64,000 nucleotides of DNA from Candidatus Omnitrophota bacterium (GCA_041651035.1 JBAZKC010000002.1:30884-94883), one strand, 5' to 3'; positions 1,606 to 51,067 are shown, counted from the first letter of the stretch. Notes: generated by a model from the letters alone, not told the origin. Numbers and translations: made by a program.

Positions 1606-2456
1606 TCAGGAAAATTAAGAATATAAGAAGAGAAATAAATAAGGTAAAGGCAGGAAAAAAAACTATAGGTTTTGTTCCGACGATGGGAGCGTTGCATGAG
1701 GGGCACCTTAGCCTTATACGCCAGGCGCGCGCGGACAATGATTATGCCATAGTGAGTATATTCGTTAATCCTGTTCAATTCGGGCCGAAGGAAGACTTTA
1801 AGAAGTACCCCAGAAATCTGCCGCGGGATGCCGCTTTATGCAGAAAAGAAGGAGTAGATATTATATTTTATCCAGATATAAAAGAGATGTATACGGGAGA
1901 TTTTAAAGCGTATGTGGATGTCCAGGGCTTAAGCGGAGTTTTATGCGGCTTGTCCCGTCCGGGGCATTTTAAAGGCGTTGCCACGGTAGTAGCAAAGTTG
2001 TTTAATATAATCAGCCCGGATATAGCTTATTTCGGCCGCAAGGATGCTCAACAGGCGGTAATTATCAAGAAGATGACTGAAGATCTGAATTTTCCTGTTA
2101 AGGTTAAAGTTATGCCTATTGTGCGCCAGAAAGACGGCTTAGCGATGAGCTCAAGAAATACCTATCTGAGTAAAAAAGAGAGGAAAGACGCGTTAGTCTT
2201 GCCTGAGTCATTAGGCCTGGCTAAGGATTTGATTTATAGGGGCATAAAGGATCCAGGTAAGGTTATCCGCGGCATGAAGCAGCTTATACAGGGCAAGGGG
2301 TCTATCCGGATTGATTATATATCTATTCTGGATTTTGATACCCTAAAGCCGGTTAAGAAGATAATTGATAATTGCCTGATAGCTTTGGCAGTGCGTATCG
2401 GTAAAACCAGGCTGATAGATAATGCCGTAATATCTAAGGGACGTTTCTTGAGCTGA
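1596..2456 (+). CDS. panC: Pantoate--beta-alanine ligase
   Basis: 286 aa with GFVPTMGALHEGHLSL HIGH-type motif. Overlaps the folK end. Its last 6 codons and stop lie inside a palindromic element. Confidence 0.9.
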   Translation: MRVIRKIKNIRREINKVKAGKKTIGFVPTMGALHEGHLSLIRQARADNDYAIVSIFVNPVQFGPKEDFKKYPRNLPRDAALCRKEGVDIIFYPDIKEMYTGDFKAYVDVQGLSGVLCGLSRPGHFKGVATVVAKLFNIISPDIAYFGRKDAQQAVIIKKMTEDLNFPVKVKVMPIVRQKDGLAMSSRNTYLSKKERKDALVLPESLGLAKDLIYRGIKDPGKVIRGMKQLIQGKGSIRIDYISILDFDTLKPVKKIIDNCLIALAVRIGKTRLIDNAVISKGRFLS

Positions 2457-2496
2457 TCCCTGCCTGCCGGCAGGCAGGGGAGATCTGTCCCTTTTT
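2438..2496. terminator. GGGAC..GTCCC palindromic element acting as an intrinsic-terminator-like hairpin with a T5 tract
   Basis: gggac at 2438-2442, a perfect 22-nt GC palindrome ccctgcctgccggcaggcaggg at 2458-2479, gtccc at 2487-2491, then ttttt. Contains the panC stop codon (2454-2456). Confidence 0.6.
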
Positions 2497-2499
2497 AAA

Positions 2500-3324
2500 A
2501 TGATGAAAAGATTAAAAATCGGAATTGTGGGGTGCGGAGCGATCGGCAGTTCTCTAGCTAAAGCAATAGCTAGTGATTTTAAGAAGGAAGCAGAGCTATC
2601 CGCGTTTTACGATATTGATACTAAGAAATCCCGCGATTTATCAAGAACGGTCTCTAATAAGCGCGATTTAGTGGTCCGGGGGCTTAAACAATTAATTGAT
2701 AGATCTGAATTGGTGATCGAGGCATCTTCTGCCAAGAGTTCCTGGGGAATAACCAAGAATGTCTTAACAAGGCGGCGCGATATTATGGTTATGAGTGTAG
2801 GCGGGGTAGCCGGCCATTTCCGGGAATTAAGCGGGCTGGCAAAGAGGTATGGTTGCAGGGTTTATATTCCCAGTGGAGCCATTGCCGGTATCGACGGTAT
2901 AAAAGCGGCGGGGATCGGAAAGATCAGAAGGGTTACGCTTACTACGCGTAAGAATCCCAAATCTTTTAAAGGCGTTGAGTATATTAAAAAGAAGGGTATC
3001 AATTTAGATAAGATCAAAAAAGATACTACGTTATTTTCCGGCAGCGCCAAAGAAGCGGTTAAGTGTTTTCCTCAAAATATCAATGTTGCCGGGTTATTGA
3101 GTATTGCCGGTGTCGGGGAGGATAAAACCAAGGTTAGGATCATCGCCTCTCCGGATACAAAGAAGAATATCCATGAGGTCAGGATAGAATCGGAAGGTGC
3201 TAAGATATTTACGAGGACCGAGAATATCCTTCATCCCGATAATCCTAAAACAAGCTATCTGGCGGTATTATCGGCAGTAGCGGTTTTAAAACAGATTTTA
3301 GGCCCGGTTAAGGTCGGCACTTAA
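2500..3324 (+). CDS. Aspartate dehydrogenase domain protein (NadX-like)
   Basis: 274 aa, N-terminal Rossmann motif KIGIVGCGAIGSSLAKAI and overall NadX-like layout. Confidence 0.6.
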   Translation: MMKRLKIGIVGCGAIGSSLAKAIASDFKKEAELSAFYDIDTKKSRDLSRTVSNKRDLVVRGLKQLIDRSELVIEASSAKSSWGITKNVLTRRRDIMVMSVGGVAGHFRELSGLAKRYGCRVYIPSGAIAGIDGIKAAGIGKIRRVTLTTRKNPKSFKGVEYIKKKGINLDKIKKDTTLFSGSAKEAVKCFPQNINVAGLLSIAGVGEDKTKVRIIASPDTKKNIHEVRIESEGAKIFTRTENILHPDNPKTSYLAVLSAVAVLKQILGPVKVGT

Positions 3325-3359
3325 TTAAAATAACATAAAGAAAGGGGGTGAATCAAGAT

Positions 3360-3620: not shown

Positions 3621-3670
3621 TATAACCCCGCGCCTTTTAACACATGCATATTAAAGGGCGCGGGGTTATC
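3621..3670. terminator. Perfect 13-bp inverted repeat hairpin (ataaccccgcgcc / ggcgcggggttat) with a 22-nt partly palindromic loop
   Basis: Seen directly in the sequence between the small basic protein gene and the B12 radical SAM gene. There is no clear U-tract, so it may be a terminator or a 5' UTR structure. Confidence 0.4.
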
Positions 3671-3678: not shown

Positions 3679-5037
3679 ATGAATATATTGTTGATCCAGC
3701 CATTCTTTAAAAAAAGCGAAAAAGCATATCCTTTAGGCTTAGGGTATATCAGTTCTGTCCTGAAACAGCGGGGGCATAACGTCTTTGGCGCGGACCTTTC
3801 TTTTTATCATCCCGGAGAGATCTTAGATTTAATAAAAAAAGAGAACATCAACCTCGTCGGGATCTCAGCAATGTCATATAATTTTAGTAATGCCGTCCAT
3901 ATATGTAAAAATATAAAGAGCCGTTATGCTGTCCCCATTGTTGTCGGTGGCCCGCATGCGACTATATTTAAGGAGAGGTTACTGCGCAATTATGGCGGGT
4001 ATTTTGATTATTTAGTCGCCGGAGAAGGTGAATGGGCATTTGCCGAATTGACGGATTGCCTGCAAAAAGGAGTACCGCCTGCGCATGTAGATGGTTTATC
4101 GTATATCAGTAATGGGGAGATTTTCATAAATAAAAAGCGTAAAGAAGAACCCGATATCAATAATTTCCCTTTTCCTGACAGGAATATCTTTCCCATATAT
4201 AAATACAGGGGAATGTTTGCCAGGGAAAAACTATATACCCAGATTATTACCAGCAGAGGCTGTGATCACCGCTGCAACTATTGCCCTGAATCTGCGCTAT
4301 CAAACGGCTGGAGGGGCCGTTTGATAGAAAATGTAATTGCTGAGATCGAATCTATCGTGGCATCGTTTGGGATAAAGGAATTCCATATTGAAGACGCGAA
4401 TTTCCTTGGCGGCGGGGCAAAGAGGATAGAGGAATTATGCAAACGCATCATCGCTTTAAAATTAAATATAAAATGGCAATGCCCTAATGGGATACCCGCT
4501 ATGGATTTTAAAGATGATTCTATCCTGGGATTGATGGCGGAGGCAGGCTGTTACAGCATATCCCTTGGCATAGAATCGCTTGAAGAGGGTATTCTAAATA
4601 GCATGGGCAGGCTTTATAACTTTAATTCAGTCAAGAAGATAGTAAAAAGCGCGCATAAAGCAGGCATAGAAGTTACGGGATATTTTATGATAGGCTTCCC
4701 CGGGCAGAGCCTGAAAAGTATTAAAAATGATGCCTCCTTATCAAGAAGGTTAGGTTTTGATTTCTTGCATTATTCTATTTTTCAGCTGATTCCCGGTTCT
4801 TCTCTTTTTTATAGTTATTCTGACAGTTTAGATATAGAATATACAATAAAACAATACGCCATTTTGCCGGGTATCAATAAGAGATCTTTAGGCAGGCTTC
4901 GAATACTGTTTTCCCTATCAGGCTTTTTAAGCCCGAGGTATTTTTTGTTTATTTTCAGCCTGATAATAAGAAATAATCCGTATAGGATCTTACGCAGGGC
5001 GGCCGTGCATCTCTTGGGGTTAGATCTTAAATTCTAA
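3679..5037 (+). CDS. B12-binding domain radical SAM protein
   Basis: N-terminal cobalamin-binding-like domain (NILLIQPFF..LGLGYISS) followed by RGCDHRCNYCPE (CxxxCxxC). Confidence 0.8.
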   Translation: MNILLIQPFFKKSEKAYPLGLGYISSVLKQRGHNVFGADLSFYHPGEILDLIKKENINLVGISAMSYNFSNAVHICKNIKSRYAVPIVVGGPHATIFKERLLRNYGGYFDYLVAGEGEWAFAELTDCLQKGVPPAHVDGLSYISNGEIFINKKRKEEPDINNFPFPDRNIFPIYKYRGMFAREKLYTQIITSRGCDHRCNYCPESALSNGWRGRLIENVIAEIESIVASFGIKEFHIEDANFLGGGAKRIEELCKRIIALKLNIKWQCPNGIPAMDFKDDSILGLMAEAGCYSISLGIESLEEGILNSMGRLYNFNSVKKIVKSAHKAGIEVTGYFMIGFPGQSLKSIKNDASLSRRLGFDFLHYSIFQLIPGSSLFYSYSDSLDIEYTIKQYAILPGINKRSLGRLRILFSLSGFLSPRYFLFIFSLIIRNNPYRILRRAAVHLLGLDLKF

Positions 5038-5043
5038 CCCCCC
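5017..5043. repeat. Hairpin ggggttaga-N8-tctaacccc overlapping the stop codon of the radical SAM gene
   Basis: 9-bp stem with the TAA stop (5035-5037) inside the 3' arm. Confidence 0.4.
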
Positions 5044-20603: not shown

Positions 20604-20632
20604 TTGACAAAATTGTTTTTAGATGATAAACT
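20604..20632 (+). promoter_or_regulatory. Candidate promoter TTGACA-17-(TGa)TAAACT upstream of the first pilin
   Basis: TTGACA at 20604-20609; extended -10-like TGATAAACT. Confidence 0.35.
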
Positions 20633-20663
20633 GTGTGGCATTAACAATAACAGGAGGTGTCAA

Positions 20664-21092
20664 ATGAGTAGGAAAGGTTTTACGTTGCTGGAGTTGATAG
20701 TAGTAATGGTTATTATCGGTGTACTGGCTACCTTAGGTTTTAATCAATACGGAAGGATGATAGAAAGGGCTCGCGGCGCTGAAGCCAGGTCAATTTTAGG
20801 GGATATCCGCAAGTACTCTGCCGCTTATTATCTGGAAAACGGCGCGGTTACAAATCTTACCGCGACCCTTGTTAATATCGGCACGGATAACGATCAAATC
20901 CCCAGCGCATGCGCTGACTCACATTATTTCAGTTACGCTCTGACTTCCCATGTAGATCCTACTATAGTAGCTACTGCTACGCGTTGCATAGCGGATGGAA
21001 AGACTCCTGATGCGGCTACAGCCTCAACGCTTATCCTTACTTCAAATATGTCTACAGGGGTAGATGCCTGGAGCGGGACTGGCGGTTATTAA
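20664..21092 (+). CDS. Type IV (major-type) pilin, prepilin N-terminal cleavage/methylation domain
   Basis: MSRKGFTLLELIVVMVIIGVLATL has the G|FTLLE class III signal. A caggaggtg RBS precedes it, and its C-terminal domain differs from the next three pilins. Confidence 0.85.
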   Translation: MSRKGFTLLELIVVMVIIGVLATLGFNQYGRMIERARGAEARSILGDIRKYSAAYYLENGAVTNLTATLVNIGTDNDQIPSACADSHYFSYALTSHVDPTIVATATRCIADGKTPDAATASTLILTSNMSTGVDAWSGTGGY

Positions 21093-21125
21093 TTTCTATA
21101 AAGACAAATAACCCGCTGGAGTACA

Positions 21126-21539
21126 ATGAAGGATAAGGGGTTTACTTTAATAGAGCTTATTGTTGTTATTATTGTCATCGGTGTTCTGGTGACTTTGACT
21201 TTTACCCATTATGGCTCATACACGGAACGCGCTTTAAATAAAGAGGCCCAGGCAAACCTAAGGTTGATCATAGCGGCAGAACGCAATACTAGAGTAGAAA
21301 CAGGCGATTACTATGCCAGCGATTCCACTCAACCTACGGCAATAAATAATATAAATACTAATCTAAGGCTATCCCTTTCAGCGGCAACTAACCGAAAGTG
21401 GGATTACGTCACTACGGTTGATAACGCGGCTGATCCTCCTACCTGTTGTGCTCAGGCAACGAGGAATGGCGATGATTCCAGGACTTATAGGATCCGTGAT
21501 ACCGAAGACAACCCGGTCGCAGACGGTACTTGTCCATAG
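21126..21539 (+). CDS. Type IV pilin paralog A
   Basis: MKDKGFTLIELIVV..; C-terminal CCAQATRNGDDSRTYRIRDTEDNPVADGTCP disulfide loop. Confidence 0.85.
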   Translation: MKDKGFTLIELIVVIIVIGVLVTLTFTHYGSYTERALNKEAQANLRLIIAAERNTRVETGDYYASDSTQPTAINNINTNLRLSLSAATNRKWDYVTTVDNAADPPTCCAQATRNGDDSRTYRIRDTEDNPVADGTCP

Positions 21540-21572
21540 ACAGCCGACCTTTCGTAAGGCGCCCAAAATAAA

Positions 21573-22049: not shown

Positions 22050-22063
22050 GGGATACCCACAAA

Positions 22064-30418: not shown

Positions 30419-31123
30419 GTGTTTAAGAACAAGTTTTTATTCTTTCCGCCACTAATCTTTATTTTATTTCTTATTCCAAATTATTTCCTTTTTGCCGAAG
30501 AAACTCTCACTATCACCTCCTATTATCCGTCACCTTACGGCAGCTACAACGAGCTCCGCGCTAAGCGTATAGCCATAGGAGATAACTATATCAATACCAC
30601 TACCTATACCTGGGAGGCAACCGACGGAGATGGAGGAGAGGTTGATTACTTAGCTGATCTGATAGTTGAAGGCAGGGTAGGCATTGGCACGGTTACTCCT
30701 ACTGTCCCGCTGCATGTTACAGGTACATCAACCGGGGCTGTAAGGATAGTAGACGGCAACCAGGCTTCAGGCTATGTCCTGACTTCAGACGCAAACGGCG
30801 TAGGCAAATGGCAGGCAAGTTCAGGTGGTACAAGTTATACATACTATTGTTATAACTCTACATATACTAGTATGTTTGGAGTCGTGATGGCTTCTACTGG
30901 TACCCCCCAATGTACCGACTCCGGAGGCACTCGAGGTTATTGCCCCGCAGGATATACGCAGAAGCTCGCGCTTGGCTCATGGGGTATATGTGCGGCAGGC
31001 GTTCTTACCTACTATGGATATTTTCTTCCTCCGAGTGGCAGTTGTGGTACCGTGAACATATCAGGTACAGATTTTGCTGCGGCTGCTGTTGTTTACGGCA
31101 CAGCATACGTTTGTTCTCAGTAA
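30419..31123 (+). CDS. Secreted Cys-rich protein, paralog 3 (probable GTG start)
   Basis: The GTG at 30419 is preceded by an aaagagg RBS. Mosaic similarity to paralogs 1 and 2, with the longest C-terminal tail. Confidence 0.6.
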   Translation: MFKNKFLFFPPLIFILFLIPNYFLFAEETLTITSYYPSPYGSYNELRAKRIAIGDNYINTTTYTWEATDGDGGEVDYLADLIVEGRVGIGTVTPTVPLHVTGTSTGAVRIVDGNQASGYVLTSDANGVGKWQASSGGTSYTYYCYNSTYTSMFGVVMASTGTPQCTDSGGTRGYCPAGYTQKLALGSWGICAAGVLTYYGYFLPPSGSCGTVNISGTDFAAAAVVYGTAYVCSQ

Positions 31124-31133: not shown

Positions 31134-31298
31134 ATGATTTATGCAAATAGAAAAAGATCATTTACGCTGGTAGAGATCATGATCGTTATCGCGATAATCG
31201 CGTTATTATCCCTTATTGCTATACCTAATTTACTCCGGCAGCGCCTCCAGCAAAATGAATCCGCGGCGCCGGCAGCTTTAAATGGTGTAGTAGCGCCA
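31134..31298 (+). pseudogene. Prepilin-type N-terminal fragment (54 codons), possibly a truncated pilin/pseudopilin
   Basis: MIYANRKRSFTLVEIMIVIAIIALLSLIAIPNLLRQRLQQNESAAPAALNGVVAP stop. Classic FTLVE + hydrophobic helix, but Ser at -1 and no globular domain. It ends where the palindromic element at 31304 begins, and is not in the ORF track (<60 aa). Confidence 0.45.
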
Positions 31299-31303
31299 TA
31301 AAA

Positions 31304-31405
31304 GACAGGGACAGCCCCCAATAGCGGCGGGACACTTTCCATTGAGTTACCTTGTTTTAGCTCTGATGGAAGGTGTCCCGTAACTGTTTTCGGGGACAGT
31401 CCCTT
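31304..31405. repeat. Composite nested palindromic element (gggacagcccc .. gggacactttcc .. ggaaggtgtccc .. ggggacagtccc) followed by a T6 tract
   Basis: Seen directly: outer gggacag arms and inner gggacac/gtgtccc arms. This may act as a terminator. Confidence 0.7.
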
Positions 31406-31459
31406 TTTTAAAATAATTTCCCTTGCTGAAGGCCGTTTTTATGATAGAATTTACATATT

Positions 31460-33626: not shown

Positions 33627-33666
33627 TTTTCTCTCTCTTGCATGCCTGAAAATCATACCGCCGAGT

Positions 33667-33717
33667 ATGCTAAAATTATCCGAGTTCCTAGAAAAGGAAC
33701 GAGGAAAATTTTAGCAT
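33667..33717. terminator. Imperfect hairpin atgctaaaatt..ttcct / aggaa..aattttagcat after rng
   Basis: 11-bp outer and 5-bp inner complementary arms; T-rich downstream. Confidence 0.35.
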
Positions 33718-33762
33718 ATTTTACGAGGCGGGATTTACTAATTTTTATTCACTAATTTTGGC

Positions 33763-34155: not shown

Positions 34156-35142
34156 ATGTTTGTTGACAGCGTAAAAATATACGTCAGGGGAGGCAATGGC
34201 TCCAGAGGCTGCCAGAGCTTCTACCGTGATAAATATACGCGCCACCCGATACCTAACGGAGGAGACGGCGGCAAGGGTTCCGACATTATTATAAAAGCGG
34301 ATAGGAATTTATATACCCTTTTAGACTTTAAGTATAACAGTAATTTTCGCGGCCCAAACGGCGGCCGCGCTTCCAGCAATAAGAAAAAGGGCAAGGATGC
34401 CTCTAGTATTATTATCCCTGTCCCTATAGGCACGACCATTAAGGATATAAAAACAAATTGCGTGCTTCGCGATCTGGATAAAGACCAGCAGGAAGTTATA
34501 GTAGCTTATGGCGGTAAAGGCGGCCTGGGTAACCAGCATCATAAAGAAGCTTCTGATGGGGAGCCCGGAGAGGAAAAAGAGCTGCTGCTTGATTTAAAAG
34601 TAATCGCGGATGTGGGCATCGTAGGTTTTCCTAACGCGGGAAAATCCACGTTGATCTCCAGTATCTCTAATGCCCATCCGAAAGTAGCCTCCTATCCTTT
34701 TACTACCAAATCCCCTATTTTAGGCGTGGTTAATTATTCCCGCAAGCCGTTTACAGTAGCTGATATTCCCGGGCTTATCAAAGGTTCATCAGAAGGCCGC
34801 GGCCTGGGGGATAGGTTTTTAAGGCACATCGAACGGACGAGAATTATTATCCATATTGTGGATATCTCGAGCTCTGAAGGCAGGGACCCGGTAGAGGATT
34901 ATAAGACCATAAATGAAGAGTTAAAGAATTATAGCGAGGAAGTTAGCTCCGATGTTAAATATTTTGGCGCCAGGGTTAATAAAAAGCCGCAGATCATCGT
35001 TGCCAATAAAATGGATATAACAGGCGCTGATTCTAATCTCAAGATATTTAAGAAGGCGGTAAAGAAAAAGGTTTATCCGATATCCGCGCTGAAAAAAGAA
35101 GGGCTGGAGGAGTTAATTGAAGCAATCGTCGAAAAACTTTAA
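34156..35142 (+). CDS. obg: GTPase Obg
   Basis: MFVD..KIYVRGGNGSRGC, glycine-rich Obg fold, G1 GFPNAGKST, G3 DIPG. Confidence 0.92.
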   Translation: MFVDSVKIYVRGGNGSRGCQSFYRDKYTRHPIPNGGDGGKGSDIIIKADRNLYTLLDFKYNSNFRGPNGGRASSNKKKGKDASSIIIPVPIGTTIKDIKTNCVLRDLDKDQQEVIVAYGGKGGLGNQHHKEASDGEPGEEKELLLDLKVIADVGIVGFPNAGKSTLISSISNAHPKVASYPFTTKSPILGVVNYSRKPFTVADIPGLIKGSSEGRGLGDRFLRHIERTRIIIHIVDISSSEGRDPVEDYKTINEELKNYSEEVSSDVKYFGARVNKKPQIIVANKMDITGADSNLKIFKKAVKKKVYPISALKKEGLEELIEAIVEKL

Positions 35143-36187
35143 GAGGATCGTTGTAAAAATAGGCTCAAGCCTTCTGTGCCCTGATAAGGGGAAGCTTGAG
35201 CGCGGGCTGCTTAATGAGATCACCGGCCAGATCCAGGATCTGGTTAAAGACGGCAAAGAGATAGTCGTGGTCTCTTCGGGCGCGATCGCCCTGGGGATGG
35301 CTATATTGAAACTGGAATCACGCCCGAAAGAACTGGCGTATCTGCAGGCAGCCGCGGCTATAGGCCAACCAGAGCTGATGGATATCTATAGGGAATCTTT
35401 TAAGCAAAGGCAGTTAAATTGCCCGCAGCTGCTTTTAACCTGGGAAGATTTTAATGACCGCTCGCGTTATCTAAACGCCAAGAATACATTGTTAGCGCTT
35501 TTAAAATTAAACAGCGTGCCGATAATAAATGAAAACGACACAGTCTCCACTGATGAGATAAAATTCGGAGATAATGACCGGCTTTCAGCGCTGGTATCCA
35601 TACTTATCGGCGCGGACCTTTTGGTCATACTCTCTGATGTTGACGGCCTTCTGGAAAAAGATAAAAAGACCCTGGTAAGGTTAGTAGATAAAATTACGCC
35701 CCAGATACATGGCCTGGCTTGCCCTACGGATAAAAAAACCTGCGTGGGCGGGATGGTGACCAAGATAGAAGCAGCCAGGATTGTCGTAGACTCCGGTATT
35801 CCCTGCGTGATCGCCAATGGCAGGCGTAAAGGTATTATTAAATCCTGCGTAGACAATTCTAGTGAGAGCGGCACTTTGTTTTTGCCTAAGAAAGATCATC
35901 TTGCCGCGAAGAAGCGCTGGATCGCTTTTAGCGCCAAGCCAAAAGGAAAAATTATCGTTGATGATGGGGCCCGCCTTGCGCTCCTGAATAAGAAGAGCCT
36001 GCTTTCAGTAGGGATCGTTGGTTGTGAAGGCAGTTTTAATAAAGGGGACATTGTCAGCTTAAGAGATAAGCAAAACCGCGAATTCGCCAGGGGCAAAGCG
36101 GCGCTTTCCAGCGGAGAATTAGACAAAATTAAAGGCAGGCGCTGCGAGAAAGAAGCGGCCCATTGCGATAATATAGTCATATTGTAG
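35117..36187 (+). CDS. proB: Glutamate 5-kinase with C-terminal PUA domain
   Basis: KRIVVKIGSSLL.., amino-acid kinase fold, PUA C-terminus. Confidence 0.9.
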   Translation: MKQSSKNFKRIVVKIGSSLLCPDKGKLERGLLNEITGQIQDLVKDGKEIVVVSSGAIALGMAILKLESRPKELAYLQAAAAIGQPELMDIYRESFKQRQLNCPQLLLTWEDFNDRSRYLNAKNTLLALLKLNSVPIINENDTVSTDEIKFGDNDRLSALVSILIGADLLVILSDVDGLLEKDKKTLVRLVDKITPQIHGLACPTDKKTCVGGMVTKIEAARIVVDSGIPCVIANGRRKGIIKSCVDNSSESGTLFLPKKDHLAAKKRWIAFSAKPKGKIIVDDGARLALLNKKSLLSVGIVGCEGSFNKGDIVSLRDKQNREFARGKAALSSGELDKIKGRRCEKEAAHCDNIVIL

Positions 36188-36192: not shown

Positions 36193-36254
36193 CAGGGACT
36201 GTCCCCGAAATGTAGCTCCTGATGGGCTGTTCTTAGGGGACTGCCCCTAGAGAG
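36193..36254. repeat. Type A palindromic element between proB and proA
   Basis: cagggactgtccccgaaatgtagctcctgatgggctgttcttaggggactgcccctagagag. Confidence 0.8.
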
Positions 36255-40121: not shown

Positions 40122-40745
40122 ATGGTTTATTCTATATCGCGGTTTTTAAGTTTATTGATATTTAAGATCGTGTTTCGGCTGGAGGTACACGGCCAAAAAA
40201 ATATACCTGAAAAAGGAGGTTTTATTTTAGCCGGCAACCATGTCAGTTACTTAGACCCGGTTGCCGTAGGGGTAGCCTGTCCGCGTGAAACTGATTTTAT
40301 GGCGCGGCACGATTTATTCTCGAAGCGTTTTCTCTCCTGGTGGCTGCCCAGAGTGAGGGCTTTTCCGGTAAAAAGGGATTCTCCGGACGCGTCAGCTTTA
40401 AAAGAAGCTATACGGCGCCTAAGGCGCGGCAGGGGGTTGGTTATGTTTCCTGAAGGCAGCCGCCGCGACGGGCCAGACGGCACTTCAGCTGGACCGCAGC
40501 CGGGTATCGGATTTATAGCGGTAAAAGCTGATGTGCCTGTGATACCGGCTTTTGTAAAAGGGACGGAAAGAGCGCTTCCCAGAGGCGCTAAATTCATATT
40601 TCCCGCTAAGGTTTCCGTGTATTTCGGGAAACAAATTCATATAGAAAAGGGGGTATCTTATCAAAGCGTCGCTAAAATAGTAATGGACAATATTAAAATT
40701 ATTGATACGAAGGGAGAAATAAAAAATGACAGAAACAAGATCTGA
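40122..40745 (+). CDS. plsC: 1-acyl-sn-glycerol-3-phosphate acyltransferase
   Basis: AGNHVSYLDP (HX4D) and MFPEGSRR acyltransferase motifs. Confidence 0.85.
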   Translation: MVYSISRFLSLLIFKIVFRLEVHGQKNIPEKGGFILAGNHVSYLDPVAVGVACPRETDFMARHDLFSKRFLSWWLPRVRAFPVKRDSPDASALKEAIRRLRRGRGLVMFPEGSRRDGPDGTSAGPQPGIGFIAVKADVPVIPAFVKGTERALPRGAKFIFPAKVSVYFGKQIHIEKGVSYQSVAKIVMDNIKIIDTKGEIKNDRNKI

Positions 40746-42264
40746 GATGGAGCAGTTTTATAATCAAAGTATAAAGATAATCCGCGAGGGCCAGGTAGTT
40801 ACCGGAAAGATCATTTCCGTGAGGGCTAAAGAGGTACTGGTGGATGTGGGGTTTAAATCCGAAGGCCTTGTCCCGATCATCGAGTTTAGCAAGGATGACC
40901 TAGAACCCGGAAAAGAATTAGAGTTCTACGTCGAATCAATAGAGAACGACGCGGGCAATATTGAGCTGTCCAGGGAAAAGGCAATGCGCATACAGGGGTG
41001 GGACAAGATCGTTAAATTTTCCCAGGATGGAGAGTTTGTCGACGGCAGGCCTGTTAAGAAAGTAAAAGGCGGGTTTCTCGTTGATGTTATGGGTATTGAA
41101 GGGTTCCTGCCTTCGTCTCTTTCCGCTTTTAAGGGTATCATGGAAAGGGATATTATGTATAAGCCTTATAAGTTCAAGATCGTCAAAGTTAATAACCTAA
41201 GGCGGAGCATTATCGTCAGCCGGCGTGAAGCTGTGCAGAAAGACAAGGAAGTAAACAAAACTAAAGTATGGCAGGGATTAAAGATCGGCGATATACATTC
41301 CGGCATGGTCAAGGCCATAACCGATTTCGGCGCCTTTATTGACTTAGGCGGAGTAGACGGGCTCCTGCATATTACGGATATGTCCTGGTCAAAGATCAGC
41401 CATCCTTCAGAAATAGTGGCTTTGGGGGATAAGATCGAAGTAACGATCTTGAATTTGGATAAAGATTCGGGAAAGATCTCTCTGGGATTAAAGCAAAGGC
41501 TGCCGGATCCCTGGCAGGATGTTGAGACAAAATTCAGCGTCGGCTCTAAAGTTAAGGGGAAGGTTGTAAATATTCTTCCATACGGGGTGTTCGCTGAATT
41601 GGATAAAGGGATAGAGGGATTGATCCATATATCAGAGATCTCCTGGATAAAGAGGATCAATAACCCGAGCGAGATGTTCGCTATCGGGGATATGGTAGAG
41701 ACTCAAGTGATAAGTGTGGATAAAGAGTCCCGCAGGATATCCTTAAGCATTAAACAACTGGAGCAGAATCCCTGGTTAGAGGCTGAATCCAAGTATCCTG
41801 TAGGCGCGAAAATCTCAGGTAAAGTAAGGGGATTTACGGAATACGGCGCCTTTGTGGAATTAGACAGCAGCTTGGAAGGAATGATCCATGTTTCTGATAT
41901 CTCTTGGACTAAAAGGATCGCGCATCCTCAGGATGTGTTGAAAAAGGGCCAGAAGGTGGATGTATCTGTTCTTTCCGTGGACAGCCAGAACCGGCGCATT
42001 TCTTTAGGCTTAAAACAATTACAGCCTAATCCTTGGACGGAGATCGCCGCCAAGTATCCCCTGGATACTATTTTAGAAGCAGAAGTAGCCAGCATCACTG
42101 ATTTTGGTGTCTTTGTGAAAATAGAAGAGGATCTGGAGGGTTTGATTTACGCCAGTGAAATAGATAAGGACACGGTTTCTAAATTGAAACCGGGAGATAA
42201 AATACAGAGCAAGGTTATTAAGGTTGATGTTGAGCAGGCCAAGATCGGCCTCGCCCCCGTTTAA
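40726..42264 (+). CDS. rpsA: 30S ribosomal protein S1
   Basis: 512 aa, six S1 (OB-fold) repeats. Confidence 0.92.
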   Translation: MTETRSEMEQFYNQSIKIIREGQVVTGKIISVRAKEVLVDVGFKSEGLVPIIEFSKDDLEPGKELEFYVESIENDAGNIELSREKAMRIQGWDKIVKFSQDGEFVDGRPVKKVKGGFLVDVMGIEGFLPSSLSAFKGIMERDIMYKPYKFKIVKVNNLRRSIIVSRREAVQKDKEVNKTKVWQGLKIGDIHSGMVKAITDFGAFIDLGGVDGLLHITDMSWSKISHPSEIVALGDKIEVTILNLDKDSGKISLGLKQRLPDPWQDVETKFSVGSKVKGKVVNILPYGVFAELDKGIEGLIHISEISWIKRINNPSEMFAIGDMVETQVISVDKESRRISLSIKQLEQNPWLEAESKYPVGAKISGKVRGFTEYGAFVELDSSLEGMIHVSDISWTKRIAHPQDVLKKGQKVDVSVLSVDSQNRRISLGLKQLQPNPWTEIAAKYPLDTILEAEVASITDFGVFVKIEEDLEGLIYASEIDKDTVSKLKPGDKIQSKVIKVDVEQAKIGLAPV

Positions 42265-42271
42265 ACGCTTA

Positions 42272-42339
42272 GGGACACCCTTTTTGCCAATCGAGGGACA
42301 CCCTTTCAGCTAATCGGGAGGGTGTCCCTTCAAGGGACA
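42272..42339. repeat. gggacaccc-type palindromic element (two direct gggacaccctttt copies plus inverted agggtgtccc) between rpsA and tyrS
   Basis: gggacaccctttttgccaatcgagggacaccctttcagctaatcgggagggtgtcccttcaagggacat; can form a 9-10 bp hairpin. Confidence 0.7.
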
Positions 42340-44802: not shown

Positions 44803-45600
44803 ATGCGCGACATAAAAGGAAAGGTTTCCATAATCATGCCTGCTTATAATGAAGCAGGCCGCATCGCCGCCAGCATAGAAGAAACAGCCAAAACTTTTAA
44901 CGAGTTTGGGTGCTCTTGGGAGCTCATCGTGATGGATGACGGCTCAAGCGACGATACGTATGAGTTTACCAGAGAAATTTCCAAAAAATACCCCGCCGGC
45001 CGGATTATTATCAAAAAGAACCCTTTTAACATGGGTAAAGGCAGGGCGCTTAAAAAGGCATTACGTTACATAAGCGGGGATTACGCGGTGTTCTTAGACG
45101 CGGATATGGATTTGCACCCCATACAGGTTCAAACGCTTTTTGACATCATGCGCCTGGATAACGCTGATATAGTCATAGGCTCTAAATTGCACCCTAATTC
45201 AATAGTGGATTATTCTTTCCAGCGCAGGCTTTATAGCTGGGTTTATTATTTGTTGGTAAAGATGCTTTTTGGCCTGCCTTGTCATGATACTCAAACCGGC
45301 CTTAAGTTATTTAAGACCGAGGTCTTGCGAAAGGTTTTCCCCCGGATACTGGTAAAGAAATTTGCCTTTGACCTGGAGGTTTTGGTAAACGCGCACCACT
45401 TAGGATATAAAATGGCGGAAGCCCCGATAGTGCTTAGTCCCCAAAGGCGTTATGGCCGTATTGGGCTCAATGCCGTCTTTGTTACTTTATGGGATACCCT
45501 GGCAATATTCTATCGGATGCATATTTTAAAATATTATGACCGTATCCATTATTATCGTCGTAAAAACCTGGCAAAAGAATTTAGAAGAATGCGTAGGTAA
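44803..45600 (+). CDS. Glycosyltransferase family 2 (DPM/undecaprenyl-phosphate sugar transferase-like)
   Basis: VSIIMPAYNE..DDGSSDDT..FLDADMD motifs. Confidence 0.85.
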   Translation: MRDIKGKVSIIMPAYNEAGRIAASIEETAKTFNEFGCSWELIVMDDGSSDDTYEFTREISKKYPAGRIIIKKNPFNMGKGRALKKALRYISGDYAVFLDADMDLHPIQVQTLFDIMRLDNADIVIGSKLHPNSIVDYSFQRRLYSWVYYLLVKMLFGLPCHDTQTGLKLFKTEVLRKVFPRILVKKFAFDLEVLVNAHHLGYKMAEAPIVLSPQRRYGRIGLNAVFVTLWDTLAIFYRMHILKYYDRIHYYRRKNLAKEFRRMRR

Positions 45601-46507
45601 GTGCCTCAAACTCGACTCTGCTGAGTTTGAGATCTTGATCTTGCCTGACGAACCTATTGCCCAAAGGGACAGTCTCTGTTCGGGGACAGTCCCTATTAGA
45701 GTTATTCCCACGGGCCCTGTGTCTCCGGCTGATAAGCGGGACATAGCCATAAAATACGCGAAAGGAGACATCGTTGCTTTTATCGATGACGATGCCTATC
45801 CGGTAAAAGATTGGCTTAAAAACGCGTTAGAGAATTTTAAAGATGAAGAGGTGGCCGCGGTAGGGGGGCCGGCAATAACCAGCCCTCTGGACAGCTTAAG
45901 ACAAAAAGCAAGCGGCGCGATATATTCGTCGTTTTTAGTAAGCGGGGGATTTGTCTATCGTTATCTGCCTAAGGAAAAAAGAGAGATAGATGATTATCCG
46001 AGTTGTAATCTTCTGGTCCGTAAATCCATAATGCGGGAGTTAGGCGGTTTTAATACCAAGTTCTGGCCGGGAGAAGATACTAAGCTTTGCCTGGATATAA
46101 CTGTCAGGCTCGGTAAAAAGATAATTTATGACCCCGGTGTCCTGGTTTATCATCACCGCCGGCCGGTCTTTGTCCCCCATCTTAAGCAGATAGCTAATTA
46201 TGCCCTTCATCGCGGTTATTTCGTAAAGAAATACCCCGAAACCTCTTTAAAGTTGCCTTATTTTATTCCCACGCTATTTCTATTCGCGCTGACAATAGGC
46301 GCTATCTTGTCTATGGTTTCAGCTCCCATTAGAATAATTTATTCTTTAGGGTTGTCGTTATATTTAATTTCAGTTTTTATTTCTAGTATTCGTAATGGCG
46401 CGCGTTTGGCACCTTTTGTATTTTTCGGCATAATATTTACTCATTGCACCTATGGTTTTTATTTCCTGAAAGGCCTTTTTTACCAGAAGCTTTCCGAAGA
46501 AAAATAA
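45536..46507 (+). CDS. Glycosyltransferase family 2 with C-terminal membrane helices
   Basis: VSIIIVVK..IDDDAYP; contains a 28-bp in-frame GGGAC element at 45666-45693 (SLCSGTVP). The start overlaps the upstream GT2 by 65 nt. Confidence 0.75.
   Translation: MTVSIIIVVKTWQKNLEECVGKCLKLDSAEFEILILPDEPIAQRDSLCSGTVPIRVIPTGPVSPADKRDIAIKYAKGDIVAFIDDDAYPVKDWLKNALENFKDEEVAAVGGPAITSPLDSLRQKASGAIYSSFLVSGGFVYRYLPKEKREIDDYPSCNLLVRKSIMRELGGFNTKFWPGEDTKLCLDITVRLGKKIIYDPGVLVYHHRRPVFVPHLKQIANYALHRGYFVKKYPETSLKLPYFIPTLFLFALTIGAILSMVSAPIRIIYSLGLSLYLISVFISSIRNGARLAPFVFFGIIFTHCTYGFYFLKGLFYQKLSEEK
45666..45693. repeat. Short gggacagtc / ggggacagtccc element inside the GT2 CDS
   Basis: gggacagtctctgttcggggacagtccc. 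Confidence 0.6.
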
Positions 46508-46508: not shown

Positions 46509-46744
46509 GGGGACGGTTCTCTTCGAGAACCGTCCCCAGGTTTCACCAAAACAGGGACTGGTTCCGAAAGCTATTTAAAATCGCGGGGATAATTTGTCAT
46601 TCTGAACTACTACTCTTTTAGTCATTCTGAGCGAAGCGAAGAATCTGTTTTTAGATTCTTCGGCCTGCGGCCTCAGAATGACGACAAGACAGGGACTGGT
46701 CCCGAAAAGTAGCTCAATATAGACTGTTCTTAGGGACCTGTCCC
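46509..46744. repeat. Intergenic nest of palindromic elements: a type B hairpin, a partial type A arm, a long gtcattctgag hairpin and a full type A element
   Basis: 46509-46537 ggggacggttctcTTCGgagaaccgtcccc (13-bp stem, UUCG loop). 46552-46575 cagggactggttccgaaagc. 46621-46682 gtcattctgagcgaagcgaagaatc..gattcttcg..ctcagaatgac, with an extra gtcattctga copy at 46596. 46690-46744 cagggactggtcccgaaaagtagc..ctgttcttagggacctgtccc. Confidence 0.8.
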
Positions 46745-46754
46745 AAAAATAAAT

Positions 46755-48248
46755 ATGAAAATTATAATTTCTTACCCGCCGTTAAAGAACCAAAAAGGCT
46801 GCCCTACGCTTGGCCAAAACCGCCAGTTCCAGTATTTTAAAGACGAAACATTTATTTATCCGGTAGTCCCGGCGCAGGCGGCTACACTGCTAAAACAAGC
46901 AGGGCATGAAGTTATTTGGAATGATTGCCTGGCTCAAGGCTGGGATTACAAAAGGTTCCTTGATTTTATAAAATCTGAGAATCCTGACCTGATCGCTTTT
47001 GAAACAAAAACTCCCGTGATCAAGCAGCACTGGCAGATAATAAACGATATTAAGGGACTGTCTCTGAATGCCCCTAAGATAGCCTTATTCGGCGACCACG
47101 TTACTGCTCTTCCGGAAGAATCATTCCAGAATTCAAAAGTAGACTTTGTATTGACTGGAGGCGACTATGATTTCTTGCTTCTGAATTTATGCAATAACCT
47201 TCAGGGGACGGTTCTCAAAGAGAACCGTCCCCATGTTTTGCCTGCCCCTGAGTTTGAACCCGGCATCTATTATCGCGAAAACAACCAAATTAAAAATACC
47301 GGAAAATTTGAGCTTAACCATGACTTAAATTCACTCCCGTTTATCGATCGTGACTTAACCAAGTGGCAGCTATATGCCCGTAAGAACGGAAATTATAAGA
47401 GGACTCCCGGGACCTACATTATGTCCGGCAGGGATTGTTGGTGGGGAAAATGCACATTTTGCAGCTGGGGGAGTTTCTATCCGTCATTCCGCAGCCGCTC
47501 TGCCAGTAACGTGTTGGATGAGATCGGTGATCTGATAAAACGGTATGGGGTAAGAGAAATAATGGATGATACGGGTAGCCTTCCTACAGGAGGGTGGCTT
47601 AGAGAATTTTGCCGGGGCATGATCTCGCGCGGCTATAATAAAAAAATTTATTTAGACTGCAATATGCGTTTTGGCGCGTTGTCAGCGGAAGAGTACCGGC
47701 TGATGAAGGAAGCCGGGTTTCGTCTGCTTTTATTTGGCTTAGAATCCGCGAATCAGTATACTTTAGACAGGGTAAATAAGAAACTGCGGGTTCAGGATAT
47801 TATTGATTCCTGTAGATCAGCCCGTAAAGCAGGGTTATTCCCGCATATTACGCTTATGTTTGGTTACCCTTGGGAAAGTTATTCCGATGCCTTAAACACC
47901 CTAAAACTGGGGAAATGGTTATTGACTAAGGGTTGCGCTTATACGATGCAGGCAACTGTAGTTATCCCGTATCCCGGCACTCCTCTTTTTGAAGAATGCA
48001 GGAAAGAACGTTGGCTAAAGACCTTAGACTGGGATGATTATGATATGAAGAAGCCTGTGATGACAACCGCCATACCCGATAATAAAATTTTAGGGTTGGT
48101 CCAGGATATGTATAAAGTTTCTTTCCGACCGGATTTTATTTTAAGAAAGATATTTTCCCTAAGGGATATTGAAGATGTAAAATACTCTTTGCGCGCGGCA
48201 AAGAAGGTGTTGGGGCATATTTTTGATTTTAAGAAGGGGGAAAGATGA
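46755..48248 (+). CDS. B12-binding domain radical SAM protein (sugar-modifying candidate)
   Basis: 497 aa, cobalamin-binding N-domain, radical SAM core. Contains an in-frame type B element at 47205-47233 (GTVLKENRPH). Confidence 0.75.
   Translation: MKIIISYPPLKNQKGCPTLGQNRQFQYFKDETFIYPVVPAQAATLLKQAGHEVIWNDCLAQGWDYKRFLDFIKSENPDLIAFETKTPVIKQHWQIINDIKGLSLNAPKIALFGDHVTALPEESFQNSKVDFVLTGGDYDFLLLNLCNNLQGTVLKENRPHVLPAPEFEPGIYYRENNQIKNTGKFELNHDLNSLPFIDRDLTKWQLYARKNGNYKRTPGTYIMSGRDCWWGKCTFCSWGSFYPSFRSRSASNVLDEIGDLIKRYGVREIMDDTGSLPTGGWLREFCRGMISRGYNKKIYLDCNMRFGALSAEEYRLMKEAGFRLLLFGLESANQYTLDRVNKKLRVQDIIDSCRSARKAGLFPHITLMFGYPWESYSDALNTLKLGKWLLTKGCAYTMQATVVIPYPGTPLFEECRKERWLKTLDWDDYDMKKPVMTTAIPDNKILGLVQDMYKVSFRPDFILRKIFSLRDIEDVKYSLRAAKKVLGHIFDFKKGER
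47205..47233. repeat. Type B palindromic element in-frame inside the radical SAM CDS
   Basis: ggggacggttctcaaagagaaccgtcccc (13-bp stem, aaa loop). Confidence 0.75.
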
Positions 48249-49114
48249 AAGGAATAATTTTAGCAGGAGGCAAGGCCAGGAGGCTGTATCCGATCACCAA
48301 GGGGGTCTGTAAGCAAATGCTCCCTATTTACGACAAGCCTATGATTTATTATTCTCTATCTACGTTGATGCTTGCCGGTATAAAGAATATCCTGATAATT
48401 TCTACTCCGGTTGCTCTGCCTAGATTCAAGGATTTATTAGGCGATGGCTCTCTTTTGGGTATTAACATTTCCTATGCCCAACAGCTTGAGCCAAAAGGCA
48501 TAGCCGAAAGTTTTATCGTAGGAGAAAATTTTATCGGGGACGATAAGGTTTGTTTAATATTAGGAGATAATATATTTTACGGGCACAATCTTACCGGGAT
48601 CCTGAAAGAGGCCCGTTCCCTAAAGGAAGGGGCAGCGGTTTTTGGCTATTATGTAAAAGACCCCTCAAGATACGGAGTAATAGGGCTTAACGCTCGGGGC
48701 AGGGTAATCTCAATCCAAGAGAAGCCAAAAAAACCGGCATCCAACTGGGCAATTACTGGATTGTATTTCTATGATAACGAAGTAGTCCGCATCTCAAAGA
48801 GCCTCAAGCCTTCTTACCGCGGAGAATTAGAGATAACCGATGTTAATAACGAATATTTAAAGAAAGGGAAACTTAAAGTCAAACTTTTAAACCGCGGATA
48901 CGCCTGGTTGGATACAGGTACTTGCGATTCTTTAATTGACGCTTCGATGTTCATTAAAACCATAGAAGAGAGGCAAGGGTTAAAGATCGGCTGTATTGAA
49001 GAAGTGGCTTATAGAATGGGGTATATCAACAAAAAACAATTGGCAAATTTGGCGCGGGAAATAGGCACAAATTATGGCGAATACCTAAAGAGCATATTAA
49101 AAGATGAAGAATAA
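48245..49114 (+). CDS. rfbA: Glucose-1-phosphate thymidylyltransferase
   Basis: MKGIILAGGKARRLYPITK..KQMLPIYDKPMIYY signature. Confidence 0.92.
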   Translation: MKGIILAGGKARRLYPITKGVCKQMLPIYDKPMIYYSLSTLMLAGIKNILIISTPVALPRFKDLLGDGSLLGINISYAQQLEPKGIAESFIVGENFIGDDKVCLILGDNIFYGHNLTGILKEARSLKEGAAVFGYYVKDPSRYGVIGLNARGRVISIQEKPKKPASNWAITGLYFYDNEVVRISKSLKPSYRGELEITDVNNEYLKKGKLKVKLLNRGYAWLDTGTCDSLIDASMFIKTIEERQGLKIGCIEEVAYRMGYINKKQLANLAREIGTNYGEYLKSILKDEE

Positions 49115-49952
49115 AATCCTTATTTTAGGCAATGGTTATATCGGTAATAGGCTTTGCGAGGAGCTCGGAGCCGAGCTTGCCGGAGGGAGGATCAGTTCTT
49201 TGCTAGATGCGCAAGAACAGATCCAGATGTATAAGCCTAACATCATTATTAACTGTATCGGGCATACCGGAAGAAACGTTGATGATTGCGAACTGGATAA
49301 GGATAAGACATTAATGGCGAATACATTTGTCCCCGTGATCTTAGGCGAAGCGGCGCTGCGCGATAATATTAAACTCATCCATATCAGCAGCGGATGTATT
49401 TACAAATTTGATTATTCTCAGGATAGTCCTATTAAAGAAGATAAGACGCCCGATTTCTTTAGGCTCTTTTATAGCCGGACCAAGATATACGCCGAACAGG
49501 CGTTAAAGGCATTGTTTAAAGAATGTCCGGCACTGATCGTCAGGATACGCATACCGCTGGACAACCGGCCCCATCCTAAGAATCTGCTTACTAAGCTGCT
49601 GGAGTACAAGAAGATTATCGATATTCCCAATTCAGTTACCTATATCCCAGATTTTATAGAAGCTTTAAAACATTTGATCCATATTAATGCCGAGGGTATT
49701 TACAATGTCGTCAATAGAGATGGCTTGCGCTACCCCGACCTTTTAGATGCATATAAGAAATACATTCCGGATTTTCAATACCGGGTCGTTGACTACAAGG
49801 AATTGAATTTAGTAAGGACTAACCTGATATTGTCTACGGCTAAACTCCAGAGATCCGGCTTTAAGGTGAGAGATATTAATTCTGTTTTAGACGAATGTGT
49901 AAGGGGATATTTGGGATATTCAGGGACTGTCCCCACCAAAGCTATTAGTTAG
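49104..49952 (+). CDS. dTDP-4-dehydrorhamnose reductase-like (RmlD substrate-binding family)
   Basis: ILILGNGYIGNRL Rossmann, HISSGCIY, YSRTKIYAE catalytic YxxxK. The last 10 codons and stop are encoded by the palindromic element at 49921. Confidence 0.65.
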   Translation: MKNKILILGNGYIGNRLCEELGAELAGGRISSLLDAQEQIQMYKPNIIINCIGHTGRNVDDCELDKDKTLMANTFVPVILGEAALRDNIKLIHISSGCIYKFDYSQDSPIKEDKTPDFFRLFYSRTKIYAEQALKALFKECPALIVRIRIPLDNRPHPKNLLTKLLEYKKIIDIPNSVTYIPDFIEALKHLIHINAEGIYNVVNRDGLRYPDLLDAYKKYIPDFQYRVVDYKELNLVRTNLILSTAKLQRSGFKVRDINSVLDECVRGYLGYSGTVPTKAIS

Positions 49953-49981
49953 CCATAACCAAGGGGACTGTCCCTAAAGAG
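49921..49981. repeat. Type A-variant palindromic element spanning the rfbD-like 3' end
   Basis: cagggactgtccccaccaaagctattagttagccataaccaaggggactgtccctaaagag. Confidence 0.75.
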
Positions 49982-49990
49982 GGTGGTATA

Positions 49991-51028
49991 ATGACCAATA
50001 AATCTATCTTGATTACCGGCGGCGCGGGTTTTATCGGCAGCGCCTTTGTAAGATTGTTAAATCAAGGGGACGGTTCTGCCTTTGGTAGAACCGTCCCCGA
50101 GTTTCACAGAACAGGAACTGTCCCTAAGATTATAGTAGTAGACAGCCTTACCTATGCCGGAGATTTAAAGCGTCTTAAAGAAGCAAAGGGCAGATTTAAG
50201 TTCTACAAAGTTGATATTTGCGATAAGAAAAGAATGGAAGCGGTCTTCGCGAAAGAAAAACCGCAAGCCGTAGTGCACTTTGCCGCGGAAAGCCACGTTG
50301 ACCGCAGTATTAATGATGCTACGCCATTTATTGAAACTAATATTAAGGGCACACAAATTCTTCTTGATGCCGGCCGCAAGCACGAGATAAATAAATTTAT
50401 TTTTATTTCCACCGACGAGGTCTACGGAGAGATTGCCAATGGCAAGTTTAACGAAAATTCTCCAATTAGGCCGAACAGCCCTTACGCGGCTTCTAAAGCG
50501 GCAGCAGACCTCCTGGTGCAGGCATATATCAGGACTTACAAATTCCCCGCGATAATTATCCGGCCGTCAAATAATTACGGCCCCTGGCAATACCCGGAAA
50601 AACTCATTCCCTTAGCTGTTTTAAAAATATTGCGCGATAAAAAAGTGCCTGTTTATGCTCAGGGCAAGAATGTCCGGGAGTGGCTTTATGTGGAAGACTG
50701 CGCGAAAGGAATTATGCGGATATTGCAAACGGGAAAGCTTGGGCAGGTTTATAACCTGGGAAGCAATGAAGAAAAACAGAATATAGACGTGGTGAAAATG
50801 ATCTTGAATATTTTCAATAAGCCCGAAAATATGATTGAATTTGTAAAGGACAGGCCCGGGCATGACATACGCTATAGCCTGGATTCCAGGAAGGCCCGTC
50901 GGGAAACTAATTGGAAACCGAAAATAAAGTTCAAAGAAGGCATTAAATTGACCGTATCTTGGTATCTCAAAAACAAGAGTTGGCTTCTTAGTAAATATCC
51001 GTCAGCAGGGACTGGTCCCGAAAAGTAG
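49991..51028 (+). CDS. rfbB: dTDP-glucose 4,6-dehydratase
   Basis: ILITGGAGFIGS.., YAASKAAAD (YxxxK). Has a 62-bp composite element inserted in-frame after the Rossmann motif (50067-50128), and its C-terminus and stop lie inside the element at 51006. Confidence 0.88.
   Translation: MTNKSILITGGAGFIGSAFVRLLNQGDGSAFGRTVPEFHRTGTVPKIIVVDSLTYAGDLKRLKEAKGRFKFYKVDICDKKRMEAVFAKEKPQAVVHFAAESHVDRSINDATPFIETNIKGTQILLDAGRKHEINKFIFISTDEVYGEIANGKFNENSPIRPNSPYAASKAAADLLVQAYIRTYKFPAIIIRPSNNYGPWQYPEKLIPLAVLKILRDKKVPVYAQGKNVREWLYVEDCAKGIMRILQTGKLGQVYNLGSNEEKQNIDVVKMILNIFNKPENMIEFVKDRPGHDIRYSLDSRKARRETNWKPKIKFKEGIKLTVSWYLKNKSWLLSKYPSAGTGPEK
50067..50128. repeat. Composite type B + partial type A element in-frame inside rfbB
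   Basis: ggggacggttctgcctttggtagaaccgtccccgagtttcacagaacaggaactgtccctaag; colinear with the intergenic composite at 46509-46575. Confidence 0.8.
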
Positions 51029-51067
51029 CTTAAGATGAACTGTTCTTAGGGACCTGTCCCTAAAGAG
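51006..51067. repeat. Type A palindromic element overlapping the rfbB stop
   Basis: cagggactggtcccgaaaagtagcttaagatgaactgttcttagggacctgtccctaaagag; the rfbB TAG is the aaaagTAG inside the element. Confidence 0.8.

Follow-up and report, generated by a model that had tools for sequence, protein, structure and literature searches.

Short palindromic repeats that reach into genes are known from several groups of bacteria. Repetitive extragenic palindromic (REP) sequences and the REPINs of E. coli, Pseudomonas and Stenotrophomonas are imperfect palindromes, short and rich in GC, whose centre is asymmetric and whose copy number is high (PMC2817692, PMC3116915, PMC3337134). In published REPs the palindrome is preceded by a GT(A/G)G head, genes for the tyrosine transposases associated with REPs (RAYTs) lie between inverted REPs (PMC2817692), and REPs stabilise or attenuate transcripts according to references cited in PMC3337134. 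PMC10969869 describes Rickettsia palindromic elements (RPEs) as 100-150 bp long, with a conserved peptide, restricted to Rickettsia and with no known transposase, and in enterobacteria a repeat unit can be joined to a gene's 3' end so that the ordinary stop is lost (Delihas 2007, PMC2759123). Here we analyse a stretch of 64,000 nt (the window), one strand of a metagenome-assembled genome (MAG) of Candidatus Omnitrophota (GCA_041651035.1 JBAZKC010000002.1:30884-94883), in which small palindromic elements supply the last codons and the stop codons of panC, an RfbD-like gene and rfbB. These elements probably form a REP/REPIN-like family.

Like the RPEs described in PMC10969869, the Omnitrophota elements are in-frame palindromes that add peptides at tolerated sites of unrelated housekeeping genes (here those for RfbB, MtaB, a family 2 glycosyltransferase (GT2) and a radical SAM protein); they measure only 27-63 nt, however, are read in all three frames (GTVP, GLSP and RDCP) and share no sequence relationship with RPEs. 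In behaviour they resemble RPEs, but they do not belong to that family. The ERIC-like units RU-1, RU-2 and RU-3 of enterobacteria (PMC2759123) show the same 3'-end fusion, loss of the normal stop, C-terminus running past the conserved domain and absence from orthologs, but are 103-168 bp long and belong to another family and host range. The effect is therefore already known, since repeats replace stops and extend C-termini in enterobacteria, Rickettsia and other bacteria, and no new mechanism is involved. What is new is the phylum hosting the elements, their small size, their high intragenic share (including a hot spot in RfbB) and the wide spread of one core; we found no description in the literature of the motif or of Omnitrophota repeats. 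According to work attributed to Liang, Rudd and Deutscher in 2015, E. coli REPs near stop codons reportedly stall ribosomes and trigger tmRNA tagging. A stable hairpin likewise lies at the stop, or within a few nt of it, in eight of the nine gene-end copies here, but in three cases the stop is inside the hairpin rather than upstream.

Inventory and structure of the repeat family

The window contains at least 14 related copies that, as in REP families, are short, GC-rich, imperfect palindromes. The arms of type A consist of the core GGGAC(T/A)GTCCC(C); the doublets in the window use GGGAC-T-GTCCC(C) around a loop of ~30 nt and fold into a 6+6 bp stem with one T.T mismatch, and five long copies constitute a 59-nt type A family. 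Type B is the hairpin GGGGACGGTTCT..AGAACCGTCCCC, nested in some cases. The copies, together with one hairpin outside the family, are listed by position.

2436-2493, + strand: nested hairpin element of panC with a degenerate type B outer stem, overlapping the panC 3' end
5016-5041, + strand: unique 9-bp hairpin outside the family, at the stop of a B12 radical SAM gene
27993-28051, + strand: type A doublet, in frame in the MtaB-like methylthiotransferase gene 27672-28967
28969-29027, + strand: type A doublet that begins 2 nt beyond the TAG of the MtaB-like gene
31306-31404, - strand: long nested hairpin, 4 nt past the stop of an apparent 55-aa pilin fragment, with T6 after it
36193-36251, + strand: type A doublet, 5 nt past the TAG of a proB-like gene (35117-36187), with the next start codon 9 nt on
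42270-42288: half copy beside the 42293 hairpin, 6 nt past the stop of gene 40726-42264
42293-42329, no strand assigned: related hairpin with a GGGAC stem, arms GGGACACCCT / AGGGTGTCCC
45665-45694, - strand: minimal doublet, AGGGACAGTCTC-TGTTC-GGGGACAGTCCCT, in frame in the GT2 gene
46509-46569, + strand: type B hairpin (46509-46537; GGGGACGGTTCT..AGAACCGTCCCC) and left type A half (46553-46569), 2 nt past the TAA stop of the GT2 gene
46690-46748, + strand: type A doublet in a spacer full of repeats; gene 46755-48248 starts 6 nt further on
47204-47232, no strand assigned: type B hairpin, in frame in the B12 radical SAM-like gene 46755-48248
49921-49976, + strand: type A doublet with a variant loop, at the 3' end of the RfbD-like gene
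50066-50128, + strand: type B hairpin and right type A half, in frame inside rfbB
51006-51064, + strand: type A doublet at the 3' end of rfbB; the next gene starts at 51079

These repeats are far above chance, because GGGACNGTCCC occurs five times in the window compared to 0.00 times in shuffled sequence (100 shuffles) and because nhmmer, run on the window with a type A profile made from its six copies, recovers six full copies at E values of 1e-14 to 1e-21, all on the + strand. Predicted hairpin stabilities range from -22 to -59 kcal/mol. Moreover, the arms covary: 97.6% of cells over 14 copies show pairing, both sides have changed in three pairs, and none of 500 shuffles matches the score. 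The 31306 element has outer arms that are the reverse of the type A core (GGGACAG..) and an inner stem of ~23 bp that begins GGGACAC; it folds at -58.9 kcal/mol (z -9.5), with an A-run upstream and a T6 at 31404-31409. Next to this element, the 55-aa open reading frame at 31134-31301 contains an N-terminal prepilin helix only (FTLVEIMIVIAII..NESAA) and stops 4 nt before the repeat, and looks like a pilin gene fragment cut off there.

Three of the ~14 copies overlap stop codons, five are in frame inside genes (the MtaB-like, GT2, B12 radical SAM-like and rfbB genes), and most stand 10-30 nt upstream of the next co-directional gene. At the nine gene-boundary copies the upstream stop lies inside the element in three, and the element begins 2-6 nt past the stop in five. 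The fold signal at gene ends was assessed from sliding-window fold energies in place of perfect-stem counts over stop codons, which were dropped because their noise was too high to separate gene ends from controls.

The family was compared over the window and 129 further loci, among them eight metagenome contigs and at least 116 genome loci (L013-L128), all of which contain it; the latter come from species-representative genomes searched for pairs of cores with 15-45 nt between them, and a scan of genome contigs with a loop-specific pattern gave 0 matches. Copy counts for other genomes (127 copies, and a low-GC subset) apply among the matches listed and are not totals, and taxon names of genome loci are the labels on the MAG contigs. 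An Rfam scan of the window returned one tRNA only, and the repeats match no known RNA family. Two other readings of the motif were set aside. Integron attC sites were dropped by eye, given the housekeeping genes and the lack of RYYYAAC/GTTRRRY core sites, and DNA uptake sequences were dropped given that GGGAC is only mildly over-represented, with 56 occurrences against an estimated ~39 expected from base composition.

Gene ends and in-frame copies

Comparison with orthologs supports the view that the last codons and stops of panC, the RfbD-like gene and rfbB come from repeat elements, as the initial annotation had proposed from the window sequence, and the element-encoded tails are shown to extend or replace the ancestral C-terminus. 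The last 6-10 residues and the stop are element-encoded because translation continues into the left arm until it reaches an in-frame stop, the first one inside the arm or shortly beyond it. Three proteins of the comparison, P0001 (RfbB), P0121 and P0241, are 100% identical to window proteins.

The panC gene (1596-2456) has its TGA stop at 2454-2456, within the hairpin 2436-2493 (-31.4 kcal/mol, z -3.8), and its tail KGRFLS corresponds to nt 2436-2453 of the element, the arrangement first described (there for an element at 2438-2496). The element has outer arms AAGGGACG / CTGTCCCTT, an inner hairpin CCCTGCCTGCC/GGCAGGCAGGG and a T5 at 2492-2496. In PanC orthologs the conserved core ends RLIDN followed by 3-5 residues, and the window protein reads AVISKGRFLS. 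An ortholog with the identical tail but no repeat would have spoken against an element origin, and none was found: the one PanC ortholog sharing the tail (P0124, 70% identity, from the syntenic contig L009) is encoded by a gene whose end likewise carries an element in this position. Its outer arms, GGGACGGTTCT..AGAACCGTCCC, are those of the window copy; the inner hairpin is another one, and there is no T-run.

For the RfbD-like gene (49104-49952), the predicted ending SGTVPTKAIS followed by a stop is found, with TAG at 49950-49952 inside the 49921-49976 element. Orthologs are typically 272 aa long and end ..ECVKDYLKY, whereas the window protein has 282 aa, and its extra ten residues SGTVPTKAIS are exactly what the element encodes. 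In the relatives L010, L011 and L012 (80-82% identity) there is no element at the junction of the RfbD-like gene and rfbB, and the two genes overlap by 28 nt, as they do in most relatives; rfbB starts MRQGLPKILITGG in these three relatives and MRKRIPKILVTGG in most orthologs. In the window the genes are instead separated at 49921-50014 (compare 4792-4819 of L010) by the element, a ribosome-binding site and a new rfbB start, MTNKSILITGG. Contig L130 also has a repeat at this junction, with the genes apart and a new rfbB start (MTNKSILITGG or MKNKSILITGG, in the window or L130); here a 29-nt mini doublet gives the RfbD-like tail GTVPEGDCP, and in L129 a solo core gives GTVPKKD.

The rfbB gene (49991-51028) ends AGTGPEK-TAG, as first noted, with the stop at 51026-51028 inside the 51006-51064 element, which encodes the last seven residues. 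RfbB orthologs mostly end ..SKLKDINKLYK and the window protein instead YPSAGTGPEK (..SKYPSAGTGPEK); comparison with L010 and L012 shows that the ancestral tail codons were replaced and not merely displaced. Another RfbB ortholog ends ..WLLRDCPKK, which is the core in a different frame, and independent repeat-derived tails (GTVP.., GDCP, RDCPKK, RDGS) occur in other lineages. In addition, tyrS of L010 (265-338) ends within a nested type B element (GGGACGGTTCT-TAA..). The comparison of C-terminal lengths that had been suggested as a check thus supports an element origin of both the RfbD-like and the RfbB tails.

The B12 radical SAM gene (3679-5037) was said to end inside a separate hairpin with a 9-bp stem, and it does, its TAA (5035-5037) falling in the 3' arm (GGGGTTAGA..TCTAACCCC; -15.3 kcal/mol, z -5.3), although the hairpin spans 5016-5041 and not 5017-5043. 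No further copy is present in the window or the 129 loci; this is a unique structure and not a member of the repeat family.

A conserved TAG had also been attributed to the type A consensus. It occurs at position 21 in four of the five long copies in the window, with TAA in the fifth, but is absent in six of the eight metagenomic relatives and replaced by TAA in the other two; it is a trait of a subfamily and not part of any conserved design of the whole family, and rfbB alone makes use of it. In nine other genomes, among the matches listed, the TAG of the gene is formed by a T and the AG of AGGGAC. Orientation relative to genes is biased. All six type A copies in the window have the same orientation as the gene (opposite, 0), and at least four of the eight metagenomic copies are clearly co-oriented with flanking genes. 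Among the matches listed from low-GC genome loci, gene-end copies are co-oriented in 15 cases and opposite in 3 (two-sided binomial p ~0.008), and intragenic copies are co-oriented in 6 and opposite in 19 (p ~0.015). Read in the sense direction, most frames run into a stop within 20-40 nt, and the antisense strand is usually one open frame, so simple purifying selection explains both biases.

The copy 50066-50128 within rfbB is an insertion of ~15-16 aa relative to solved RmlB structures. The MtaB-like copy 27993-28051 is translated as QGLTPKYNSRRAVLRGLSLR within the linker that joins the UPF0004 domain to the radical SAM domain, a linker that is hypervariable among homologues; linker length is similar in solved MiaB/RimO structures, so this copy is not demonstrable as an insertion. 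In the GT2 gene (45536-46507) the in-frame copy encodes RDSLCSGTVP, and in the B12 radical SAM-like gene 46755-48248 the type B hairpin encodes GTVLKENRP. Open frames of at least 150 aa contain 25 of the 74 copies among the matches listed from low-GC genome loci.

The RfbB loop after GGAGFIGSAFVRLL is a repeat hot spot across the phylum: in 67 of 120 orthologs (P0001-P0120) it holds inserts of 9 to ~45 residues with the peptides GTVP, GLSP or RDCP, into which GGGACTGTCCC translates in its three frames. As a separate observation, the whole 8-kb locus L016 (1-8000) is one minus-strand open frame with two near-identical copies 3.4 kb apart, and may be a giant repetitive gene with antisense in-frame repeats. 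A second, unrelated repeat, GTCATTCTGAGCGAAGCGAAGAATC..CTCAGAATGAC, occupies the spacer 46594-46686, and a relative of it is found in L130 (2440-2480), in frame as IHPERSEGP within rfbB.

Family identity and competing explanations

Taken together, the comparisons make it likely that the window elements are a REP/REPIN-like family that a RAYT-type transposase would spread, with stop codons supplied incidentally. This is the best fit because RAYT-like genes are bracketed by the same arms and because target-site duplications are lacking. Probes for tyrosine (Y1) transposases were approximate RayT and IS200 query sequences (tblastn), and a single match was then verified by Pfam and NCBIfam. Three Y1 genes lie among the genome loci listed, two of them bracketed by family arms. 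In L052 (138-970) a Y1_Tnp gene (Pfam E 7e-16) is enclosed by inverted type B arms of 25 nt with 92% complementarity, and in L121 (3129-3848) one stands between two T-centred GGGACTGTCCC and three A-centred GGGACAGTCCC type A cores; both genes terminate inside the flanking repeat, and the best NCBIfam model for both proteins is REP_Tyr_transpos (REP-associated tyrosine transposase). A transposase gene enclosed by inverted copies is the defining layout of REP/RAYT systems (PMC2817692). No target-site duplication of at least 4 nt was found at 13 window copies (the best flanking direct repeat is at most 3 nt, with 3 nt of slop allowed), and a TA duplication sought at the window copies is absent as well. 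Y1 rather than DDE transposition is favoured by the lack of duplications, and element-free sites in L010 and L012 point to replacement, not duplication.

Further comparisons with REPs and REPINs give a mixed picture. The window core resembles the P. fluorescens REP cores GGGGGCTTGCCCCC and GGGAGCTTGCTCCC (PMC3337134), the doublets form hairpins with compensatory stem changes, and a GTAGGG head is present in only part of the family: among the matches listed, GTAGGGAC is the sequence of ~20 of the 127 copies from other genomes, and many finish with ..GTCCCTAC. On the bottom strand, the right end of five of the six window copies reads TAGGGAC. Under this reading, a RAYT-type Y1 transposase acting on single-stranded hairpin DNA would spread the copies, which in a compact genome would survive only in tiny intergenic gaps, in the last few codons of genes, or in tolerant linkers and surface loops where they are read in frame. 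The stop codons would be incidental to the element sequence, and the stem-loop at a cistron end might act in the mRNA mainly as a barrier to 3' exonucleases, a processing site or a weak attenuator, as REPs do, and not as a dedicated terminator.

Several observations weigh against a REP/REPIN assignment. REPs are mainly extragenic, whereas about a third of the copies here are intragenic and in frame (five of ~14, with three more over stop codons). The type A doublet cores are in direct orientation (with a T.T or A.A mismatch) and not inverted as in classical REPINs, and the left end of the window copies reads CAGGGAC, not GTAGGGAC; the type B arms around the L052 gene have no GTAG either. No RAYT or Y1 gene lies within the 64-kb window, the part of the source genome that was searched, and a Y1 gene between inverted copies is seen in the related contigs L052 and L121 only. 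The two proteins score 56 and 74 bits, below the curated NCBIfam cutoff of 80. In addition, many copies are old, because they are present at orthologous sites in L009 and L130, relatives at 67-70% protein identity. The hosts also differ, being Omnitrophota and other phyla rather than Gammaproteobacteria.

The breadth of the host range raises an extended form of the REP-like reading. Doublets and tandem arrays of the core GGGAC(T/A)GTCCC occur in contigs labelled as ~ten phyla (e.g. L014 3923-4328, L018, L020, L042 and L074); the loci listed are mostly Omnitrophota or MAGs labelled as Planctomycetia, with others labelled as Gammaproteobacteria, Actinomycetota, Acidobacteria, Elusimicrobiota and more, and the cultured Metabacillus bambusae has an array of eight cores repeated every 56 nt. 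Since a given REP sequence is usually confined to one lineage, a core common to many phyla is unexpected. The core and its RAYT-like partner could constitute one ancient or horizontally spreading REP system that has gained a selected role in translation or mRNA processing within the coding sequences and at the cistron boundaries of Omnitrophota. The RfbB hot spot and the junction repeats that uncouple overlapping genes fit such a role, which we nevertheless regard as rather unlikely.

It had further been suggested that the stem-loops terminate transcription, and the elements might be selected intrinsic terminators or attenuators in which overlap with the stop creates a compact stop-plus-terminator module. 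The hairpins are stable enough for this, the T5 after the panC copy and the T6 after the 31306 element (given as 31304 in the initial annotation) are both present as described, and the A-run upstream of the latter resembles a bidirectional terminator. Some Pseudomonas REPIN classes moreover appear to have been co-opted as terminators (PMC3337134), and the co-orientation of gene-end copies (15 to 3 among the matches listed, six of six in the window) also fits. T-runs, however, are missing at 12 of the ~14 copies, where TAAAGAG, TATTTAT, AAAAATA or coding sequence comes next, and L009 lacks the T-run of panC. The copies at 36193, 49921 and 51006 stand 9-15 nt before the next co-directional start in apparent operons, five copies are in frame within essential-looking genes, and a generic scan for terminators and promoters gives no enrichment (25 terminators vs 22.4 expected). 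The case for termination is weak, and we consider this explanation unlikely.

Classical MITEs (miniature transposable elements with inverted repeats), internally deleted insertion sequences of the DDE type that move through their terminal inverted repeats, are a still less likely origin. The arms could serve as terminal inverted repeats of 12-13 nt, and the CAGGG left end presumably resembles listed ends of the ISAs1 family. Nested copies and clusters such as 46509-46748 are typical of MITEs (PMC10969869). Against this stand the missing target-site duplications, the very short elements (27-59 nt), the occurrence of the 13-nt core in tandem arrays and of cores standing alone, and the fact that Y1 genes are the sole transposase genes that these arms enclose; no DDE transposase was seen beside copies in the 129 loci, although no systematic search was made. 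It is hardly credible that the cores are double-stranded DNA sites for a dimeric nucleoid-associated or regulatory host protein with only incidental overlap of gene ends, since, even though each GGGAC-N-GTCCC core is a perfect 5+5 palindrome too short to fold alone, cores occur single, paired and arrayed across many taxa, and REPs and bacterial interspersed mosaic elements bind host proteins according to PMC2817692, compensatory changes keep the doublet arms complementary and point to intramolecular pairing, type B arms behave alike without being self-palindromic, and Y1 transposase genes are flanked by both arm types.

The repeats account for odd C-terminal tails and internal GTVP, GLSP or RDCP peptides in Omnitrophota proteins as their by-products, which is relevant to annotation, ortholog alignment and structure modelling. 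On the REP/REPIN-like reading, REP/RAYT-like systems extend to a poorly known phylum, and the copies provide a natural data set on small palindromes tolerated within essential genes and at cistron junctions.

Other features of the window

Two very stable intergenic hairpins lie outside the GGGAC family, at 3622-3669 and 33658-33730; one is built on a stem of 19 bp (-34.8 kcal/mol), and the other has a fold energy of -45 kcal/mol. The regions 20604-23561 and 29086-31123 contain a run of prepilin-type (GFTLIEL) paralogues, together with three tandem secreted-protein genes of ~660 nt at 73-86% DNA identity.

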